DNA from: Clostridiaceae bacterium
Lineage (GTDB): Bacteria > Bacillota > Clostridia > Acetivibrionales > DUMB01
Reading direction: 5' to 3'
Length of the DNA stretch: 57,971 nucleotides
NCBI GenBank assembly: GCA_012840535.1
Contig: DULF01000023.1
Coordinates: 1 to 57,971, forward strand
Positions within the stretch are counted from its first letter, which is position 1; the number at the start of each line of letters is the position of its first letter. This document shows, piece after piece, positions 746-53,990 of this stretch. A model generated the notes under the pieces. The model searched no databases. It saw only the letters and a program-made list of their open reading frames with translations, and had not been told where the DNA came from. The position numbers were made by a program, and so were the translations under genes.

Positions 746-1183
746 CTACTTTTCTTCCGGAATTTCATCAAAAAAGTCAAACACCTTTTCCTTTTCGCTT
801 TCCTTCAATACTTCAACAGCATCATAATCCCGTTCTATTATTTCAAGAATGTCAAGGGTTCTATCAGTTGAGCCCATATCCACAACTGTCAGGTTCCTGT
901 TTGACATGACCTTCCTTAAAAAATCTCCTATAAATATGTTCCTTATAACTCCTTCAATTACATCCTCACAATTCTTTACAAAAAGAACCGCTTTTATTTT
1001 TATATCCTTTGAATACGACTTCTTATAAAACAAACCGGATATATTTACAACCAGATTGATAAGCCCGTAAATTGCCAATACATATGTAATAAACTGGAAA
1101 ATGATTTCAGCCAAAAAAATCCCCCCTGCATCCTGTGGAAATACTGCGGTTTTCATTTCCATAGTATGCAACTGGGGGATCAT
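746..1183 (-). CDS. Hypothetical membrane-anchored protein with a truncated GT-A (family-2 glycosyltransferase)-like segment
   Basis: 145-aa ORF. It has one hydrophobic helix (IFLAEIIFQFITYVLAIYGLINLVV), then IKAVLFVKNCEDVIEGVIRNI...NLTVVDMGSTDRTLDIL, which resembles the first strands of GT2 enzymes. The protein stops before any DxD region. No clear SD; the start is uncertain (M1 or MEMKT). Confidence 0.45.
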   Translation of the reverse strand: MIPQLHTMEMKTAVFPQDAGGIFLAEIIFQFITYVLAIYGLINLVVNISGLFYKKSYSKDIKIKAVLFVKNCEDVIEGVIRNIFIGDFLRKVMSNRNLTVVDMGSTDRTLDILEIIERDYDAVEVLKESEKEKVFDFFDEIPEEK

Positions 1184-1193
1184 CTGTTACCGC

Positions 1194-19598: not shown

Positions 19599-20531
19599 AT
19601 GCTGGAGATTTTCAAGACTGTAAACGAAGAACTGGTTCGTATGGATCATTTCGAAGATGGTGTATGGGTTAATTTGACCAATCCGACTGAAGAAGAGATA
19701 AAAAGAGTATGTGAAGGATTAAAGGTTGATGTTGAATATATAAGAGCCGCCCTCGACGAAGAGGAACGTGCACGTATTGATTCCAATAACGGTCAAACCC
19801 TTATAATAGTTGACATACCAATTGATGAAAAAGAGGGCGATAATAGCATATATGTAACCATTCCTCTTGGTATTATAGTTATTAAAGAGAATATAATAAC
19901 AGTATGTTTAAGGGAAAACCCGATTATAAAGGACTTTATAAATAACAGGGTAAAATCTTTCTATACTTTCTTTAAAAATAGGTTTATTCTTCAAATACTT
20001 TATAAAAATGCCGCTTACTATTTACATTATTTAAGGTTAATCGACAAGGAAAGCACAAGGATTGAGTATGCCCTGCACAAATCAATGAGAAACAAGGAAC
20101 TTATACAGCTGCTGGACCTTCAAAAGACCCTTGTGTTCTTTTCCACCTCGTTGAAGGCAAATGAACTGGTCCTTGAAAAAATGCTCAGGTTTGACTATAT
20201 AAAAAAGTATCCTGATGACAACGACCTTCTCGAGGATGTCATAATAGAAAACAAGCAGGCAATTGAGATGGCCAACATATACAGTAATATTTTAAGCAGT
20301 ACAATGGACGCTTTTGCCTCAATAATCTCAAACAACTTAAATATAGTGATGAAATTCCTCACATCAGTGACCATCGTAATGTCAATACCTACAATGGTCG
20401 CAAGCTTTTTCGGCATGAATGTTAATTTGCCTTTCAGCAATTTAGGCGGGGCATTTTATATAATACTGTTAATATCGTTAGCACTCTCGGGTATCTCTAT
20501 ATACTTTTTGGCAAAAAGAAAGATGTTCTAG
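19599..20531 (+). CDS. corA: CorA-family magnesium/cobalt transporter
   Basis: Two C-terminal TM helices with the signature FFGMNV (GMN motif). The ATG at 19599 (MLEIFKT) has an AGGGTGA SD. Confidence 0.9.
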   Translation: MLEIFKTVNEELVRMDHFEDGVWVNLTNPTEEEIKRVCEGLKVDVEYIRAALDEEERARIDSNNGQTLIIVDIPIDEKEGDNSIYVTIPLGIIVIKENIITVCLRENPIIKDFINNRVKSFYTFFKNRFILQILYKNAAYYLHYLRLIDKESTRIEYALHKSMRNKELIQLLDLQKTLVFFSTSLKANELVLEKMLRFDYIKKYPDDNDLLEDVIIENKQAIEMANIYSNILSSTMDAFASIISNNLNIVMKFLTSVTIVMSIPTMVASFFGMNVNLPFSNLGGAFYIILLISLALSGISIYFLAKRKMF

Positions 20532-20562
20532 GGGTTGTTCCATATGGGACACCCTTTTTTTT
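20531..20562 (+). terminator. corA terminator, shared with the convergent 74-aa ORF
   Basis: GGGGTTGTTCC-ATAT-GGGACACCC imperfect stem followed by TTTTTTTT. Confidence 0.6.
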
Positions 20563-20785
20563 AACCTTGCCTCAAAAAATCTTTTTTATCATAGAAATTT
20601 TCGCCTGGAATTCTTAAAAATCCTTGACTGTCATAGAAAGGTTCATCAGGTTTCCTTAAAAACCCCTGGTAGTCAAAGTATTCTTCACCGGGTATTCGCA
20701 GAATTCCCTCTGCATCATAATAGCTTTCACCCGGCTTACGCAAATACCCCGCGCCATCATAAAAGTCTTCAGTTTTAGAATACAA
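20561..20785 (-). CDS. 74-aa protein made of five tandem 14-residue repeats (x-F/Y-Y/F-D-x-x-G-F/I/Y-L-R-x-P-G-E)
   Basis: EDFYDGAGYLRKPG / ESYYDAEGILRIPG / EEYFDYQGFLRKPD / EPFYDSQGFLRIPG / ENFYDKKDFLRQG. The repeats are conserved at protein level while the DNA units differ. GAGAGGGA SD 8 nt before the TTG start; upstream TTGCAG-18-TATAAT. Confidence 0.6.
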   Translation of the reverse strand: MYSKTEDFYDGAGYLRKPGESYYDAEGILRIPGEEYFDYQGFLRKPDEPFYDSQGFLRIPGENFYDKKDFLRQG

Positions 20786-20897
20786 TCTTAATATCCCTCT
20801 CTTTTATTATCGCTGCATTTAATGTAGCAATTATATTATAGCATATTGTAACCTATTGCTGCAAATAAAAAGGTCCGATACAAAACCGGACTTTTCG

Positions 20898-21090
20898 ACA
20901 GGAGAAGCTAGGAAACGAGGAATCAGCTAAAGAGGGGCAAGCAAGAGCAAATGAGGGAACGGTTCACCTCTGCTTCCTATAGGGAGCAAAGAGTTCGTCC
21001 CCCCGCTTCGTTTACAGGAAGCATTGAGAGCATCATTACATTTCTTTCCCCTGCCTTCTCTCTGCTTCCCCTGTTCTACTTTTTCACCCC
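20898..21090. repeat. Purine-arm / centre / pyrimidine-arm structured element (degenerate member of the heptad-arm family)
   Basis: Left arm GACAGGAGAAGCTAGGAAACGAGGAATCAGCTAAAGAGGGGCAAGCAAGAGCAAATGAGGGAAC. Right arm CTTTCCCCTGCCTTCTCTCTGCTTCCCCTGTTCTACTTTTTCACCCC. GGGAACGGTTC lies at 20955-20965. Confidence 0.5.
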
Positions 21091-21101
21091 GGTAATTTTC
21101 A

Positions 21102-21548
21102 CTAAACCGCATTATGGACAAACGATACTATACTTGAAATCGGTATATCAGTTACAGATCCAACAGTATATACAGGATAGCCGTTCCATCCGCCTGCGGT
21201 TATTGCGCCAACTTCACTTGCGGGAGCAATGGGACCGCCGAATCCGTCTGTGTATGAGCCATAGCCGCCGCAGCCCTTGCCGTATCCATATCCGTATCCA
21301 GGACCTACATGGAAACCAGTGCAAGCGTTCCCAAGTGAGCATCCCGGTGGCGGACCAATCCTGGTGAGCAGCCTTACAAATACATTGTTAACTGCAAGAA
21401 TTACTCCTGTAAAACCTGCTCCTGACTGGCCTCCACTGTTGGTGAAGATTGTTACGGTTTCACCAATATAGTTGGCGAGCAATGCAGCAAAGCTTCCTCC
21501 GGGGAATGAACCGACACCACCATAAATTCCTCCAACACCATCAGACAT
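21102..21548 (-). CDS. Uncharacterised small protein, paralog A (Gly/Tyr-rich insert)
   Basis: GGAAGGAGAG SD before ATG 21548. MSDGVGGIYGG...LANYIGETVTIFTNSGGQSGAGFTGVILAVNNVFVRLLTRIGPPPGCSLGNAC...GPGYGYGYGKGCGGYGSY...VGSVTDIPISSIVSFVHNAV. Homologous to the ORF at 21746-22222. Confidence 0.7.
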   Translation of the reverse strand: MSDGVGGIYGGVGSFPGGSFAALLANYIGETVTIFTNSGGQSGAGFTGVILAVNNVFVRLLTRIGPPPGCSLGNACTGFHVGPGYGYGYGKGCGGYGSYTDGFGGPIAPASEVGAITAGGWNGYPVYTVGSVTDIPISSIVSFVHNAV

Positions 21549-21745
21549 TATGATCTCTCCTTCCAAATAATTAGTCGTTTACTCTTACTACATATTATGT
21601 TAACTCTTGTACACCTGTTACTTTTGTTTTGAGTTTTATGTTTAATGGTTCATCTAAATTGGAAACATTTCTTTTGAATGTCTATATGATATAACGTAGG
21701 GATATTGAGATTTGCAGAAGGTATAAAAAAAAGGAGTGATTGTAA

Positions 21746-22222
21746 TTGTTTTTCTATAGAAGGCGCACCTCCGGAAAAAGAAAGACGGCTGAAAAAGACA
21801 ACAATGTAAAGTTTTTCGACAATTCAGCCGATAGGAACGCTGAAGCTGACAAAATACAAAATGCAGATTGCGTACATACCGTTCAGGAAATAGAAGGAAA
21901 TAAGTTTGCAATGCATATGGCTAAATATTTAGGCACTACCGTCACTGTTTTCGTAAGCAGCGGAGGAATGTCAGGGGCTGGATTTACAGGGGTATTGCTT
22001 GATTCCAACAGCATTTATATAAAACTGCTTATACATATCGGACCTGCTCCGGCATGTCCTTTAGGTAATTCATGCATATACAGTAACCCCATATTTAGAT
22101 ATGGTTTTGATTTGCATATAAAAAATACAGTGCAATTCTGGAGGCCATTTATTTGTACAGTAGGCACAATTGCCTATATACCGGTTGACAAAATTGCTGC
22201 CTTTGTCCACAATGCCGTATAA
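21746..22222 (+). CDS. Uncharacterised small protein, paralog B (basic N-terminal extension)
   Basis: AAGGAG SD 9 nt before TTG 21746. ...KFAMHMAKYLGTTVTVFVSSGGMSGAGFTGVLLDSNSIYIKLLIHIGPAPACPLGNSC...VGTIAYIPVDKIAAFVHNAV. Similarity to paralog A extends upstream of the internal ATGs, which supports the long form. Confidence 0.65.
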   Translation: MFFYRRRTSGKRKTAEKDNNVKFFDNSADRNAEADKIQNADCVHTVQEIEGNKFAMHMAKYLGTTVTVFVSSGGMSGAGFTGVLLDSNSIYIKLLIHIGPAPACPLGNSCIYSNPIFRYGFDLHIKNTVQFWRPFICTVGTIAYIPVDKIAAFVHNAV

Positions 22223-22355
22223 ACAAGTGAAGCGAAAGAACCGTCCCCCTGATTGTCCTGCTTCTTCCCCTTTAAGTAAATCCTGATGAATAATTAGTAA
22301 CTTTTATTAAATAATATTTTTATGACGTATTAAGGAAATCAGGGGAGGAATTTAT

Positions 22356-22523
22356 ATGGCCGAAAATAATTTTAAAAAGCGCTTTATGGGCAAGCCTGTT
22401 GAAAACCATGAAACGGCGGCATGGGCAAAAATTCACAAGACAAAACCTGTTTCGAACGTTGCAATTCCTGATGAGCTGGAAGTAAGAAATGCCAAGGAAT
22501 GGGTTGATTCAAACCAGAAATAA
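22356..22523 (+). CDS. 55-aa conserved-looking small protein (resembles clostridial DUF3787-type proteins, from memory)
   Basis: AGGGGAGG SD 7 nt before the ATG. MAENNFKKRFMGKPVENHETAAWAKIHKTKPVSNVAIPDELEVRNAKEWVDSNQK. Below the ORF-track size cut-off. Confidence 0.55.
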   Translation: MAENNFKKRFMGKPVENHETAAWAKIHKTKPVSNVAIPDELEVRNAKEWVDSNQK

Positions 22524-22555
22524 TATAGGGGCGGACCTGTCTGTCCTCCCCTATA
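22524..22555. terminator. Bidirectional terminator between the 55-aa ORF and convergent PFOR
   Basis: TATAGGGGCGGAC-CTGTCT-GTCCTCCCCTATA, 12 of 13 bp. It overlaps the PFOR stop codon. Confidence 0.6.
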
Positions 22556-25500
22556 TTTGTTGCGCCAATCTCTTATATGTTTCGTACCTTTCCTTTGCAT
22601 GGTTCTCCGCCGCTTCAAACATTTCTTCCGCAATATCGGGAAATACATTCATCAGCGAAGAGAATCTTACCTCGCCATGCAGGAAATCCTTGAATGATCC
22701 GGAAGGTTCTTTAGAATCCAGAATAAAAGGATTCCTGCCCTCTTTTTTCAGGTCGGGGTTATACCTGTAAAGATGCCAGTATCCTGCTTCCACAGCCTTT
22801 TTTTCCTCCATTATGCTGGTCCCCATACCGGTCTTTATACCATGGTTTATGCACGGAGAATACGCAATTATCAATGAAGGCCCCTTATATCTCTCTGCTT
22901 CCGTTATTGCCTTGATCGTCTGGTTCATGTTTGCTCCCATTGCAATCTGGGCGACATAAACATAGCCATAACTCATGGCCATCAGGCCCAAATCTTTTTT
23001 CCTGATTTTCTTGCCTGATGCTGCGAACTTTGCCACTGCAGCTGTGGGTGTCGATTTGGAAGACTGTCCGCCTGTATTTGAATAAACCTCGGTATCCATT
23101 ACAAACAGGTTTACATCATCACCCGAAGCAATGACATGGTCCAGGCCTCCAAATCCTATATCGTACGCCCAACCGTCCCCTCCAATCATCCAGAAAGATT
23201 TCTTAATTAAAAAGTCCTTCCTTTCCATTATCTCGCGCAATACCAGGTGCTTTTCGTAGTCGATGCCTTTCAGAGCTTCAAGTATTCTGGCAGTAGCCTT
23301 CTTTGAAGCATCAGCGTCGTCCATGCCATTAAGCCACTCCCGGAAAGCTTCCTTTATGTTTTCATCAATGGGCGCATTTAAAGCTTCTTTCATCAGGTCT
23401 GCCAGTTTCTCCCTTATCTGTTTTACTCCTAAATACATGCCATAGCCGTACTCAGCATTGTCCTCAAACAGGGAGTTTGCCCAGGCAGGCCCCTTTCCTT
23501 CCGCATTTGTTGTATAAGCCATGGATGGAGCGCTTGCAGCCCATATGGAAGAACAGCCTGTGGCGTTTGCAATCATCATCCTGTCGCCGAAAAGCTGTGT
23601 CAGAAGCTTGATATATGGGGTTTCACCGCATCCCGGACATGCTCCGTTAAACTCCAGCAGAGGCCTTACAAACTGGCTGCCTTTTAAAGTAAATGGATCC
23701 ATTAAATTGTCCTTTTCGGTTACTGTCATTGCAAATTCCCAGTTTTCAGCTTCGGCTTCAATTTGCTGTTCCGCAGGTTTCATTATAAGTGCCTTGCCCT
23801 TTGCCGGACAGATATCAGCACAGTTGCCACAACCTGTGCAGTCAAGAGGGCTTACCTGTATACGGTACTCCAACCCTTCAAGGCCTTTCCCTATTGCTTT
23901 TTTCGTTTTAAAGGTTTCAGGCGCTCTTTCTTTCTCTTTCTGGTTCAGAAGAAACGGCCTTATTGTAGCGTGCGGACATACATACGAACACTGGTTGCAC
24001 TGTATGCACTTGTCAATCTGCCATTCTGGAATCATAACTGCAATTCCGCGTTTTTCATATGCTGTTGTTCCCAGCGGGAATGTTCCGTCCTCCATTCCGT
24101 TAAAAGCGCTTACAGGCAGCTCATCTCCTTCAAGTTGTGCCATAGGCCTTTGTATCCTTTTGACAAAATCCGGCTCCTCTTTCTCAGGCATTTCCTCATC
24201 AATTGCATCTGCCCATGCTGCGGGAACATCCACCTTCACCAGGTCTTGAATGCCCCTGTCTATTGCGGCTTTATTCATTTCAACAATTTTTTGTCCCTTT
24301 TTGCCGTACATTTTCTCAACAGAATCTTTCAGGTACCTGACCGCATCCTCAACTGGTATGACATTTGCCAATTTGAAGAAGGCAGCCTGCATTATCATAT
24401 TTATCCTGTTGCCAAGCCCAATCTCCGAGGCTATTGATATTGCATCAATTATATAGAAATTTATATTATTCCGTGCAATATACTTCCTTATTGAAGCCGG
24501 TATTTTTTCGTCCAGTTCTTCAGCCTTCCATGGGCAATTGAGTACAAATGTGCCGTTTTGTTTAAGCCCTTTCAAAATATCATACTGGTAAATAAAGGAT
24601 TTATTATGGCATGCAATATAGTCTGAACTGTAAACAAGGTATGGCGATCTTATGGGATTTTTGCCAAACCTCAGATGTGAAATTGTCGTACCTCCCGATT
24701 TTTTGCTGTCGTACGAGAAATAAGCCTGGGCATAAAGTTCGGTATTGTCTCCAATAATTTTCACCGCCGTCTTGTTCGCCCCTACCGTTCCATCGGAGCC
24801 CAAGCCCCAGAATTTGCAGCTTATTGTTCCTTCAGGAGCCGTATCGATGTCTTTCTCTTCAGGAAGCGAAGTATTTGTAACATCGTCCACAATGCCAATT
24901 GTAAAGTTATTCTTCGGCTCGTCTTTTTTCAGATTATTAAATACCGCAAGTATCTGGGACGGTCTTGTGTCTTTTGAGCCAAGGCCATACCTTCCTCCAA
25001 CTATTACAGGAGTTCTGCCGGATCCGTAAAACGCCCTTACAACATCAAGATACAGCGGTTCCCCCGCTGAGCCCGGTTCTTTTGTCCTATCCAATACAGC
25101 TATTTTCTCGACGGTTGGAGGAATAACATCAAGAAGATGCTTTGAAGAGAAAGGCCTGTAAAGGTGAACTCTTACAGCGCCTACCTTTTCGCCCCATTTG
25201 TTGAGATAATCCACTACTTCATCCACAGTATCGCATACTGATCCCATAGCCACAATCACATATTTTGCGTCTTTCGCCCCGTGGTAATCAAAAAGGTGGT
25301 ATTCCCGGCCTGTGATTCTCTTTATTTCACCCATGTAATACTCTACAATTTCGGGAACTTTTTCATAGAATTTATTTGATGCCTCCCGTCCCTGGAAGTA
25401 TATGTCAGGATTCTGGGCAGTTCCCCTGATCACCGGATGTTCAGGATTTAATGCGTTATCCCTGAAAGCTTTGATAGCCTCATAGTCGACTATATCCGCT

Positions 25501-27852: not shown

Positions 27853-28754
27853 AAGTCCTCCTGCTTCTTAAACCTTTCTTCATCATATATTGGCTGTGTC
27901 CAAAGCATGGCACCGTGTTCACTTACAACCTGCACCCTTACATAAAGCTCGCTGCCATCCATTTTATATTCTCCATATTCACCTGTTTGCTCTTTCAGAA
28001 TTTCCCCGCCTTTTCCAATGAAGATGTATTTGTTTTCCGTGACAAAACCATTATATGAAACAGCACTGGCTCTGATTGTTCCGTCATTGAAAGAGAATTC
28101 TTTCAGAATCATACCTGTAGACACATAGAAGTTTCCACTGCTCAAGGAATTCATTACACTGTCTTTATCTCTTTTTGCGTAAATCATATTCCATGACCTG
28201 GCAATATCATGCCACCTGTGAAAATCATCATTCCCAAAGCCCCATACCAGTTTGCCCTGGGAAAGCAGGAAATCCCAGGCATCTGCCGCAAGCCCTTTTC
28301 CATTCAGCCTGTAAATTACAGAATTGAATATTTCCATTCCCGTATACCCCTTCAGGTCAGCCATGTCCTTCCAGGGCCAGTACTGCATCCTCTGCCAGTT
28401 TGGATGGCAAAGTATTACTAAACCTCGCTGTTTCCTGCATTCATTTATTACATCCTGGTGATTTCCTTTTATAACACCGGTATTACCAATGCATAGCATG
28501 TGTGGATCAGTGCTGAATTCAAAGCCGTTTATAATAACCATTTCATATTTTTCCTGATACTTTTGTACATCAGAAAATAAATCGTGGTTTGATATGGTTA
28601 AAACATCATAACGCGCACCTTTATAAGCAGCAATCACTTCTTCAATCTCATAATGCCCGCAGGTATTTTCCCCCGTTCCCGCATGAGTATGAAAATTTGC
28701 TTTTAACCATTGTCCACCGTCAATATTGTTGTTTTCATAAGGATTTATAAACAT
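27840..28754 (-). CDS. PHP-domain (polymerase/histidinol-phosphatase-like) metal-dependent phosphoesterase
   Basis: LKANFHTHAGTG...LTISNHD...ILCHPNW histidine clusters. ATG at 28754 (MFINPYENN) after a GGGGGTAAG SD. Overlaps the rpiR-like start by 13 nt. Confidence 0.7.
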   Translation of the reverse strand: MFINPYENNNIDGGQWLKANFHTHAGTGENTCGHYEIEEVIAAYKGARYDVLTISNHDLFSDVQKYQEKYEMVIINGFEFSTDPHMLCIGNTGVIKGNHQDVINECRKQRGLVILCHPNWQRMQYWPWKDMADLKGYTGMEIFNSVIYRLNGKGLAADAWDFLLSQGKLVWGFGNDDFHRWHDIARSWNMIYAKRDKDSVMNSLSSGNFYVSTGMILKEFSFNDGTIRASAVSYNGFVTENKYIFIGKGGEILKEQTGEYGEYKMDGSELYVRVQVVSEHGAMLWTQPIYDEERFKKQEDLWKV

Positions 28755-53480: not shown

Positions 53481-53990
53481 TTAAATTTTTTTCCTCGCGT
53501 TTCTGAACACCTTGTTCCAAAACTTTATTTTTACAGCATTGCCCCGTCCTATGTGTTTTACTCTCCGAAATACTTTTCTTGACAGCTTTATAAAAAATCT
53601 GACAGGGTAGCTCAGCAATTTGAATATTATCCTGAAAGGGTAAGTTAATACCTTCCATATAAACTTAAATATTTTATAAACCGTTCTTAGTATAAACAGA
53701 AATGACTTTATGACAATTCTGCTGAACAGAAGAGTATATAATGTTATTCCTATAGCCGTTCCAATAAAAATATAGCCCCTGATTTCGCCTTCATTGCTAT
53801 AATAAATGACAGCAAACATGATTAGGGCAACAATGACCCAAAAAATCAGATCTTCTATATAAATAAAGATACTGCTTGTCTTTATAGCTCTCCTCTTGAT
53901 TCTAAATAGGTCATAAACAAGTGCTATAATCATTCCTCCGGCAATGGAACACAAAAATATGTAGACCTGGTTTTCTACGGTAATCGGCAA
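53481..53990 (-). CDS. yabQ: Spore cortex biosynthesis protein YabQ
   Basis: Polytopic small membrane protein (GGMIIALVYDLFRIKRR) directly downstream of yabP. Confidence 0.75.
   Translation of the reverse strand: MPITVENQVYIFLCSIAGGMIIALVYDLFRIKRRAIKTSSIFIYIEDLIFWVIVALIMFAVIYYSNEGEIRGYIFIGTAIGITLYTLLFSRIVIKSFLFILRTVYKIFKFIWKVLTYPFRIIFKLLSYPVRFFIKLSRKVFRRVKHIGRGNAVKIKFWNKVFRNARKKI

Follow-up and report, generated by a model that had tools for sequence, protein, structure and literature searches.

Little is known of the outer layers of clostridial spores except in C. difficile and C. sporogenes, and for most coat proteins of Bacillus there is no counterpart in Clostridia. In the Bacillus coat protein GerQ, the core forms nonamer rings that are stacked into filaments through continuous intersubunit beta sheets (PMC11405398). 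MnxE and MnxF are small paralogous subunits of a Bacillus exosporium enzyme complex, in which they form an alternating E3F3 hexamer and bind copper (PMC5622069). The proteins CdeC/CdeM, CsxA/CsxC SPOCS, ExsY/CotY and CotC/CotU are made late in the mother cell, self-assemble and form robust layers of the spore by means of Cys or Tyr cross-links (bioRxiv 10.64898/2026.09.03.749163; PMC9610443). Here we analyse a pair of divergent paralogous genes, A and B, on contig DULF01000023.1 (57,971 nt; this whole stretch is called the window), together with fetched homologous loci, which carry labels of the type L001-L077. We lean towards the view that the two products are late mother-cell, self-assembling Sm-like proteins built into the coat or an exosporium-like layer. 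What they most likely are, small self-assembling sporulation proteins that combine an Sm-like core with a cross-linkable low-complexity segment, has precedents in GerQ and MnxE/MnxF.

The two genes and their ribosome-binding sites are located in the window as follows (L006 and L007 are the two closest relatives):

21102..21548, minus strand: gene A, A-type family member, 148 amino acids (aa), ATG start at 21548
21557..21561, minus strand: ribosome-binding site of gene A, AGGAG, 8 nt before the ATG, kept in L006 and L007
21732..21736, plus strand: ribosome-binding site of gene B, AGGAG, 9 nt before the TTG, kept in L006 and L007
21746..22222, plus strand: gene B, B-type family member, 158 aa, TTG start at 21746

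A preliminary description of this DNA had reported two divergent open reading frames (ORFs) that encode homologous proteins despite diverged DNA and are separated by an AT-rich spacer of about 200 bp. This picture proved accurate: both ORFs are present exactly at these coordinates, and the spacer measures 197 bp with a G+C content of 28% (40.6% across the window). The proteins share 38% identity over 137 residues (BLASTP, E=2e-29), which places their paralogy far past chance, and in the DNA a single stretch of 44 nt (77% identity) is still alignable. The motifs SGGxSGAGFTGV, CxLGNxC and FVHNAV, the Gly/Tyr insert of A and the basic N-terminal tail of B, all quoted in the same description, were found as well. 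The start of gene B can be considered secure because the equivalent position carries an ATG in L006 and a TTG in L007, and because the peptide that follows it, MFFxRR...K(R)K, is kept in B-type proteins of other genera. In the public gene calls the starts of both genes are placed too far 3' (P0001, 141 aa; P0121, 122 aa), and the call that is too short for B loses its conserved basic tail. Since the N-termini are conserved among homologs, the longer forms of A and B are the correct ones, and both start codons need correction in the public gene calls.

Protein A consists of a short neutral N-terminus, a predicted Sm-like core, a disordered Gly/Tyr/Cys-rich insert at about residues 77-105 (17 G and 6 Y in 50 residues) and then the conserved PASEVGAITAGGWNGYPVYTVGSVTDIPISSIVSFVHNAV. 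Protein B starts with a basic tail (MFFYRRRTSGKRKTAEK...). Its predicted Sm-like core shows the variants TVTVFV and YIKLL and is followed by a short linker, which is not enriched in Gly/Tyr, and by the C-terminal strand pair that A also has, ending in FVHNAV.

Database searches returned 423 homologs for A and 48 for B, none with a Pfam domain and all named 'hypothetical protein'. When 1.84 billion representative proteins were searched exhaustively with a profile, 376 clusters (50% identity) were found at E<=1e-3; the family clusters listed span 84-256 aa. The family is small, discrete, unnamed and restricted to Clostridia, with proteins of about 100-250 aa. In a scan using one genome per species it was seen only in Clostridia, many of them known spore formers, and the genomes that carry it often contain 3-6 copies, frequently in tandem. 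Members were found in Acetivibrio thermocellus, A. mesophilus, A. straminisolvens, A. alkalicellulosi, Defluviitalea, Ruminiclostridium papyrosolvens, Alkalibaculum sporogenes, Anaerocolumna, Clostridium bovifaecis, C. tetani, C. thermosuccinogenes, C. cochlearium, C. novyi and C. botulinum group III. One match labelled Caulobacteraceae came from a metagenome bin and was probably misbinned.

Neither copy could be assigned to a named family in the preliminary description, and this held in the wider searches. Scans against Pfam, NCBIfam and PHROGs gave no significant family for A, for B or for a 74-aa neighbour described below, and searches of the PDB sequences with the family profile, the B core and a minimal member found no real match. 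Lowering the Pfam threshold to E<=10 for 88 members brought up sub-threshold noise only (RimP_C, DUF2642, tubulin, Shiga-toxin B). DUF2642 (PF10842), which comprises small Sm-like proteins of Bacillus, was matched by one of the 88 at E=0.022, below the cut-off. The tubulin match goes back to a likeness of 21 residues (TIFxSSGGqSGaGFTGvll versus iFHSfGGGTGSGFTSLLM; whole-chain E=0.37), which was deemed to be due to chance; membership in the tubulin/FtsZ GTPases was rejected because A and B are too small for a GTPase fold of about 200 aa or larger. Literature searches with Cthe_0453/0454, the UniProt accession and C. novyi spore proteomics brought up no study of the family beyond one transcriptome table. 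The family is undescribed: it is nameless, neither Pfam nor NCBIfam has a model of it, and none of its relatives by sequence has a solved structure.

An alignment of 88 family sequences showed G29, T31, T33, F35, G39, G40, G43, G45, F46, T47, G48, P68, G130, I135, P136 and H145 to be invariant, and C70, G73, C76 and N146 to be nearly so. The signatures of the family are thus an invariant Gly-rich loop (SGGxSGxGFTG), a near-invariant PxCxLGNxC and a C-terminal strand pair, IPxxxIxxFxHN. No signal peptide was evident by eye in the sequences read. Two distinct subtypes can be told apart. A-type proteins have a short neutral N-terminus (M-S/P-D-G...) and a Gly/Tyr/Cys-rich insert whose sequence varies but whose character is constant (G+Y fraction 0.3-0.5), after which comes the strongly conserved PASEVGAITAGGWNGYPVYTVGSVTDIP; between genera they are 70-83% identical. 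The B-type is marked by a basic tail at the N-terminus (MFF/MFL-RRRR-K...) and by the variants TVTVFV and YIKLL; its linker is short and lacks the richness in Gly/Tyr. In C. tetani a Glu-rich repetitive ORF (L077:3319-3885, plus strand) lies directly 5' of a family member and has the C-terminal strand pair, DIPIDKIVAFIHN, alone in common with the family, which suggests that this motif can be grafted onto other proteins.

The core of both proteins is predicted to be an Sm-like barrel of one helix and five strands, with a variable loop inserted between strands 3 and 4; this loop would be a disordered Gly/Tyr/Cys-rich segment in the A-type, whereas the B-type instead has a basic N-terminal tail. 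In the alignment-based AlphaFold2 model of A, a helix (20-25) is followed by strands 31-36, 46-53, 57-62, 131-136 and 140-145, and the predicted local distance difference test score (pLDDT) is 84-90 in the core and below 50 in the insert. The model of the B core (residues 48-158), with mean pLDDT 74 and 87-95 in its confident core, has the same topology (helix 4-12; strands 18-23, 32-40, 44-49, 94-99 and 103-108). The B core gave the following Foldseek matches in the PDB (TM, template modelling score of the target):

MnxE, 9bxa_E: E=5e-3, target TM 0.65
MnxF, 9bxa_B: E=2.8e-2, target TM 0.55
GerQ, 8zra_A: E=0.11, target TM 0.66, probability 1.0

Below these came a run of Gemin6/7, Lsm and Hfq chains, and the Sm/Lsm/Hfq/Gemin6/7 matches had probabilities of 0.8-1.0 and target TM of 0.55-0.68. 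Model A produced the same list with weaker scores, GerQ (8zra_A) being a weak match at E=0.63. The Foldseek viral library yielded nothing beyond uncharacterised Hfq-like phage proteins. At the sequence level, sub-threshold Pfam matches to the C-terminal barrel of RimP occurred in 24 of the 88 members (best E=0.0057) and agree with such a fold, whereas the LSM and Hfq profiles matched none and SM-ATX one (E=2.6). Spore_GerQ likewise matched none of the 88 at E<=10, and 8zra was absent from the PDB sequence matches. The resemblance to a small Sm-like barrel, guessed earlier from the hydrophobic pattern, therefore holds for the predicted fold, on which AlphaFold2 and Foldseek agree, but does not extend to membership in an Sm family by sequence.

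Foldseek lists full of Sm, Lsm and Hfq proteins and a Lys/Arg-rich tail in B could also be expected if the proteins were Sm/Hfq-like RNA binders acting on mother-cell or spore RNAs, with the tail of B adding nucleic-acid binding. Apart from the missing LSM/Hfq profile matches, the invariant residues are glycines, Cys and His and not the RNA-contact positions of Sm1/Sm2, the A-type proteins have no basic region, and Gly/Tyr/Cys-rich inserts and tandem multi-copy arrays are foreign to RNA chaperones. An RNA-binding function finds little support and is, in our judgement, very unlikely.

The leading position of MnxE and MnxF in the structural list raises a different alternative, namely a sporulation-specific but non-structural Sm-like accessory or scaffold protein, which would bind metal through Cys-x5-Cys and the C-terminal His and support a spore enzyme in the way MnxE3F3 supports the multicopper oxidase MnxG. 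MnxE and MnxF are paired paralogs that bind copper (PMC5622069), C70, C76 and H145 are invariant or nearly so, and the high conservation of the family would suit a precise binding function. The genes that flank the pair in the window, corA and the PFOR gene, are however of the housekeeping kind, and clustering of the neighbours in about 80 loci showed no oxidase among the recurrent partners. Three to six copies, often in tandem, would be expected of a structural protein made in bulk rather than of a stoichiometric subunit of an enzyme. The sequences showed no similarity to MnxE/MnxF, and the Cys loop was modelled at low confidence. We consider such a metal-binding accessory role doubtful, its probability being low.

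The spacer between A and B was inspected for sigma-E or sigma-K promoters, as the preliminary description had proposed. A sigma-K-type promoter is present before gene A but not before gene B, where a different element was found:

21592..21620, minus strand: sigma-K-type promoter of gene A, TAACA, with the 'AC' of the -35 at 21618-21617, a 17-nt spacer and the -10 CATAATAT at 21599-21592
21663..21695, plus strand: conserved promoter-like element of B-type genes, AAACATTT...N...TATATGATATAAC, kept in the window, L006 and L007

The 'AC' of the gene A promoter (GTAACA-N16-CATAATAT) is 70 nt before the start codon, and the promoter sits in a block of 50 nt of the spacer that is identical in the window, L006 and L007. 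The same arrangement precedes the orthologs in C. thermosuccinogenes and A. thermocellus. When 74 distinct A-type upstream regions were compared, AC-N16-17-CATAnnnT was found in 57 of them, almost all at -57 to -83, against an expectation of about 2 from shuffled sequences and about 3 if the motif occurred at its background frequency in these loci (0.042 per 160 nt). The motif AC-N17-CATAAnAT is enriched approximately 20-fold before A-type genes, at a fixed position and in many genera, and the 54 sites with a 17-nt spacer (49 distinct) gave the consensus aGTAACa-N12-gTTaACATAAnATgtA. In C. difficile, sigma-K promoters have AC at -35 and CATATAAT at -10, whereas sigma-E promoters have ATA at -35 (PMC3789822). 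The A-type promoter is thus of the sigma-K type, which implies late mother-cell expression. Taking the promoter together with published expression data, we infer that sigma-K RNA polymerase transcribes the A-type genes in the mother cell at a late stage of sporulation.

In the whole window the sigma-K-like pattern occurs three times (0.34 expected). Of the two extra matches to TAACA-N14-17-CATAnnAT, one (1161-1189, minus strand) is at the start of an ORF for a 145-aa membrane protein (746-1183, minus strand), which lies just 3' of metK and has no Pfam match, and the other (28472-28499, plus strand) is within an ORF of the opposite strand.

The expression data concern A. thermocellus, where spoIIGA (Cthe_0446), sigE (0447) and sigG (0448) are followed by three genes, the cohesin gene Cthe_0452 and the A/B pair. 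By this gene order the pair corresponds to Cthe_0453/Cthe_0454, Cthe_0453 being the A-type gene. Between 12 h and 37 h, Cthe_0453 was up by log2 3.3 on Populus and 5.6 on switchgrass (RNA-seq and microarray; PMC3880215). The same table lists cotJB, a cotJC-type catalase, two cotS genes, yabG, yunB and spoVFA with the same pattern (PMC3880215). The induction of Cthe_0453 agrees with the sigma-K-type promoter, though as indirect evidence.

These observations bear on the alternative that the proteins function outside the spore envelope and that the promoter likeness and the stationary-phase induction reflect general late-growth expression. The different promoter of gene B, the sigma-A-like promoter of the 74-aa neighbour and the housekeeping genes that flank the pair in the window would all be compatible with it. 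It would be difficult to reconcile with a motif enriched about 20-fold at a fixed position in some 49 distinct sequences from many genera, with the confinement of the family to genomes of Clostridia, many of them known spore formers, and with the fact that Cthe_0453 specifically follows coat and sporulation genes. We regard this alternative as unlikely.

The element before the B-type genes has the general form (G)TAAC(A/C)ATTTT-N10-12-(C)TATGATATA(T/A). By eye it can also be seen 5' of B-type genes in L004, L012, L019, L027, L030, L036 and L071, and the B-type genes probably use this other conserved promoter. Comparison by eye with the sigma-K, -E, -G and -F consensus sequences and with extended -10 sigma-A promoters identified no sigma factor that fitted: a sigma-A promoter would need the GTAAC box closer to the TGATATA(T/A) hexamer, and the -10 departs from CATA.

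In the reading that we prefer, assembly of A and B into the coat or an exosporium-like layer, the barrels would, by analogy with Sm-like proteins, GerQ and MnxE/MnxF, join edge to edge through beta strands to give rings or higher-order arrays, and these arrays would be laid down in the layer. The Gly/Tyr/Cys loop of A might stick out of the array, open to dityrosine or disulfide cross-linking, and B, through its basic tail, might be an anchoring or nucleating partner, possibly within a mixed A/B ring. A coat-like nature is supported by the composition of the Gly/Tyr-rich insert, by the two near-invariant Cys residues, by a PF12655 neighbour and by the Gly/Tyr ORFs found in seven other loci (both described below). 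The spore-surface role that had been suggested from composition has gained genuine, if indirect, support from a sigma-K-type promoter for the A-type genes, an ortholog co-induced with coat genes and, as the best structural matches, spore proteins of Bacillus; B, however, is without the sigma-K motif.

Several points weigh against this reading. The role in the spore envelope is wholly something that we infer, and the literature searches returned no proteomic or localisation data on any member of the family. A sigma-K promoter indicates expression in the mother cell and not incorporation into the spore. AC-N16-17-CATAnnnT was present in only one of 16 B-type upstream regions and is missing before gene B, so A and B may not be co-expressed. 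For the models as a whole, pLDDT reaches only 60 (A) and 74 (B core), confidence is low in the Cys motif and in the inserts, and the Foldseek E-values are weak (best 5e-3, most 0.03-1). Neither Pfam nor PDB searches detected a sequence relationship to GerQ, MnxE/MnxF, LSM or DUF2642. Coat proteins tend to diverge fast, and the cross-genus identity of 70-83% among A-type proteins is unusually high for them; it could reflect some other constrained function. For expression, the evidence is a single study, which followed an ortholog in bulk cultures rather than through a sporulation time course, and the locus tag was assigned by gene order.

A more far-reaching version of the envelope reading is possible but, we think, rather improbable. 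Mixed A/B rings of Sm-like subunits would stack or tile into an unrecognised filament or lattice layer, which the tail of B would anchor to the coat and in which the loops of A would form an oxidatively cross-linked outer mesh. With such a layer, Clostridia would have arrived independently at the ring-and-filament principle of GerQ, and its gene set would include, in other genomes, the ~120-aa family and the Gly/Tyr-rich proteins described below.

What is kept in the genomic context is that paralogs lie in clusters. Stretches of 4 kb with 2-4 family genes occur in about half of the loci, and at least 16 distinct loci from several genera have a B-type and an A-type gene no more than 4 kb apart; homologs are thus often clustered and do not occur as single copies only. 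The orientation of the pair, whose conservation the preliminary description had wished to see checked, proved variable. The genes are divergent in the window and in L006, L007, L012, L013, L019, L020, L028, L036 and L050, convergent in A. thermocellus, L011 and L027, and about 2 kb apart in L026, L030 and L071.

Small, adjacent, divergent genes with no assigned function might also be taken for a two-gene system complete in itself, for example a toxin-antitoxin pair, a system of defence or cargo of a mobile element. Here, the two proteins are paralogous and have one fold in common, neither orientation nor copy number is fixed, and synteny with the core genes for PFOR and CorA is stable in L006 and L007. 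Neither A nor B matched a PHROG, and tblastn searches of phage and plasmid collections with A gave no match, which led us to reject an origin from mobile elements. A two-gene system has little support and appears exceedingly improbable.

The neighbourhood of the pair in the window contains the following further features:

20561..20785, minus strand: gene for a 74-aa protein with five 14-residue repeats, YDxxGxLRxPGExF; no Pfam, NCBIfam or PHROGs family
20873..20891, minus strand: intrinsic-terminator-like hairpin and T run, at which the transcript of A ends, about 210 nt past its stop codon (terminator scan); hairpin kept in L006 and L007
22356..22523, plus strand: gene for a 55-aa PF12655 protein (CDIF630_02480-like spore surface protein), Pfam E=2.5e-20

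The 55-aa ORF had been counted as uncharacterised, but it is a member of PF12655, which it matches with 72.6 bits (cut-off 25) over the full 36 positions of the profile. The C. difficile member of PF12655 is found in exosporium proteomes and affects the thickness of coat and exosporium (PMC9610443). The gene for the 74-aa repeat protein has its own sigma-A-like promoter, TTGCAG-N18-TATAAT with an upstream TG, which is kept in L007. The order PFOR, PF12655, B, A, 74-aa repeat protein, CorA occurs only in the window and its two closest relatives, and a search of all fetched loci found the 55-aa and 74-aa genes beside the pair only in these relatives, L006 and L007. The idea of an island of four small uncharacterised proteins had therefore to be abandoned as a conserved unit, because the 55-aa ORF belongs to a named family, the neighbours are local and the promoter of the 74-aa gene is sigma-A-like. 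That the source organism is an endospore former, as had been assumed, follows from the presence in the window of a gene for the spore cortex protein YabQ (53481-53990, minus strand; PF09578, E=3.6e-25). In C. thermosuccinogenes, the neighbours include a gene for a YhcN/YlaJ spore lipoprotein, about 1.8 kb downstream.

The 3' untranslated region of gene A (about 20930-21080, minus strand) has some 150 nt between stop codon and terminator that L007 does not have; at the equivalent place, L006 has an inserted transposase gene of the UPF0236 family. An Rfam search of 20300-22700 gave no match.

Three kinds of gene that are absent from the window recur beside the family elsewhere. A third uncharacterised family of about 120 aa (MNY(K/R)EIExLK...G(K/R)IVG(V/I)GFKPYWTNPxDSKIEKLE...), without a Pfam match, is encoded directly 5' of A-type genes and on the same strand in 18 distinct loci across genera (L001:5383-5742, plus strand; L012, L018, L020, L023, L025, L036, L041, L051, L055 and others). 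Separate low-complexity ORFs of about 90 aa, consisting nearly wholly of Gly, Tyr and Asn and thus coat-protein-like in composition, lie between tandem family members in seven loci (among them L035:4564-4860, L051:4455-4772, L054:3954-4241, L055:2797-3075, L059:2410-2721 and L061:2866-3189). A gene of the YlbF/YmcA family (PF06133, E=4.6e-20) adjoins family clusters in L013, L028, L050, L051, L055, L057 and L061. In B. subtilis, this family is tied to the control of competence, biofilm formation and sporulation.

The family is a testable candidate for a spore envelope component: it is small, highly conserved and multi-copy and has a sigma-K-type promoter and a predicted ring-forming fold. Its hosts include cellulolytic organisms of industrial use (A. 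thermocellus, C. thermosuccinogenes, Ruminiclostridium) as well as the pathogens C. tetani, C. novyi and C. botulinum group III. If the envelope reading is true, spore envelope assembly would have one more structural component, with the Sm-like barrel put to a new use, and a Pfam/NCBIfam model would be justified, naming several hundred 'hypothetical proteins'. The 49 distinct promoter sites are a ready training set for sigma-K promoters in this clostridial group.

Among the described systems, the clostridial and bacillar Cys/Tyr-rich envelope proteins (CdeC/CdeM, CsxA/CsxC, ExsY/CotY, CotC/CotU) belong to folds and sequence families unrelated to A and B; unlike them, the A/B family has just two conserved Cys residues. 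With Sm, Lsm and Hfq proteins, A and B would share the N-terminal helix, the five bent strands and the variable loop between strands 3 and 4, in which some Lsm proteins also carry insertions, and Sm-like proteins tend to form rings, typically of 5-9 subunits with pairing between strands 4 and 5. The Gly-rich loop and the Cys motif of the family are, however, absent in Sm proteins, the signature residues of Sm1/Sm2 are absent in the family, and the context is sporulation rather than RNA metabolism.

GerQ (YwdL) resembles A and B, as predicted, in being a small protein made in the mother cell, with a barrel core of helices and five strands and a disordered low-complexity region. This region is N-terminal in GerQ, whereas A has an internal Gly/Tyr/Cys loop and B a basic N-terminal tail. 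The GerQ region is rich in Gln and Lys, which serve for transglutaminase cross-links. GerQ is single-copy in Bacilli and recruits CwlJ, whereas the A/B family is multi-copy and confined to Clostridia; sequence similarity between the two is not detectable, and the Foldseek E-value is only 0.11. The Mn oxidase Mnx of the exosporium of Bacillus sp. PL-12 (9bxa) has, like the locus described here, two small paralogous barrel proteins. MnxE and MnxF are encoded beside the multicopper oxidase gene mnxG, whereas no such gene is adjacent to A and B in the window, where their flanks code for CorA, the 74-aa protein, the PF12655 protein and PFOR. Mnx has neither the Gly/Tyr inserts nor the multiple tandem copies that mark the A/B family, and metal-binding residues are not demonstrably shared. 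The alternating ring of MnxE and MnxF nevertheless provides a precedent for a mixed ring of A and B.

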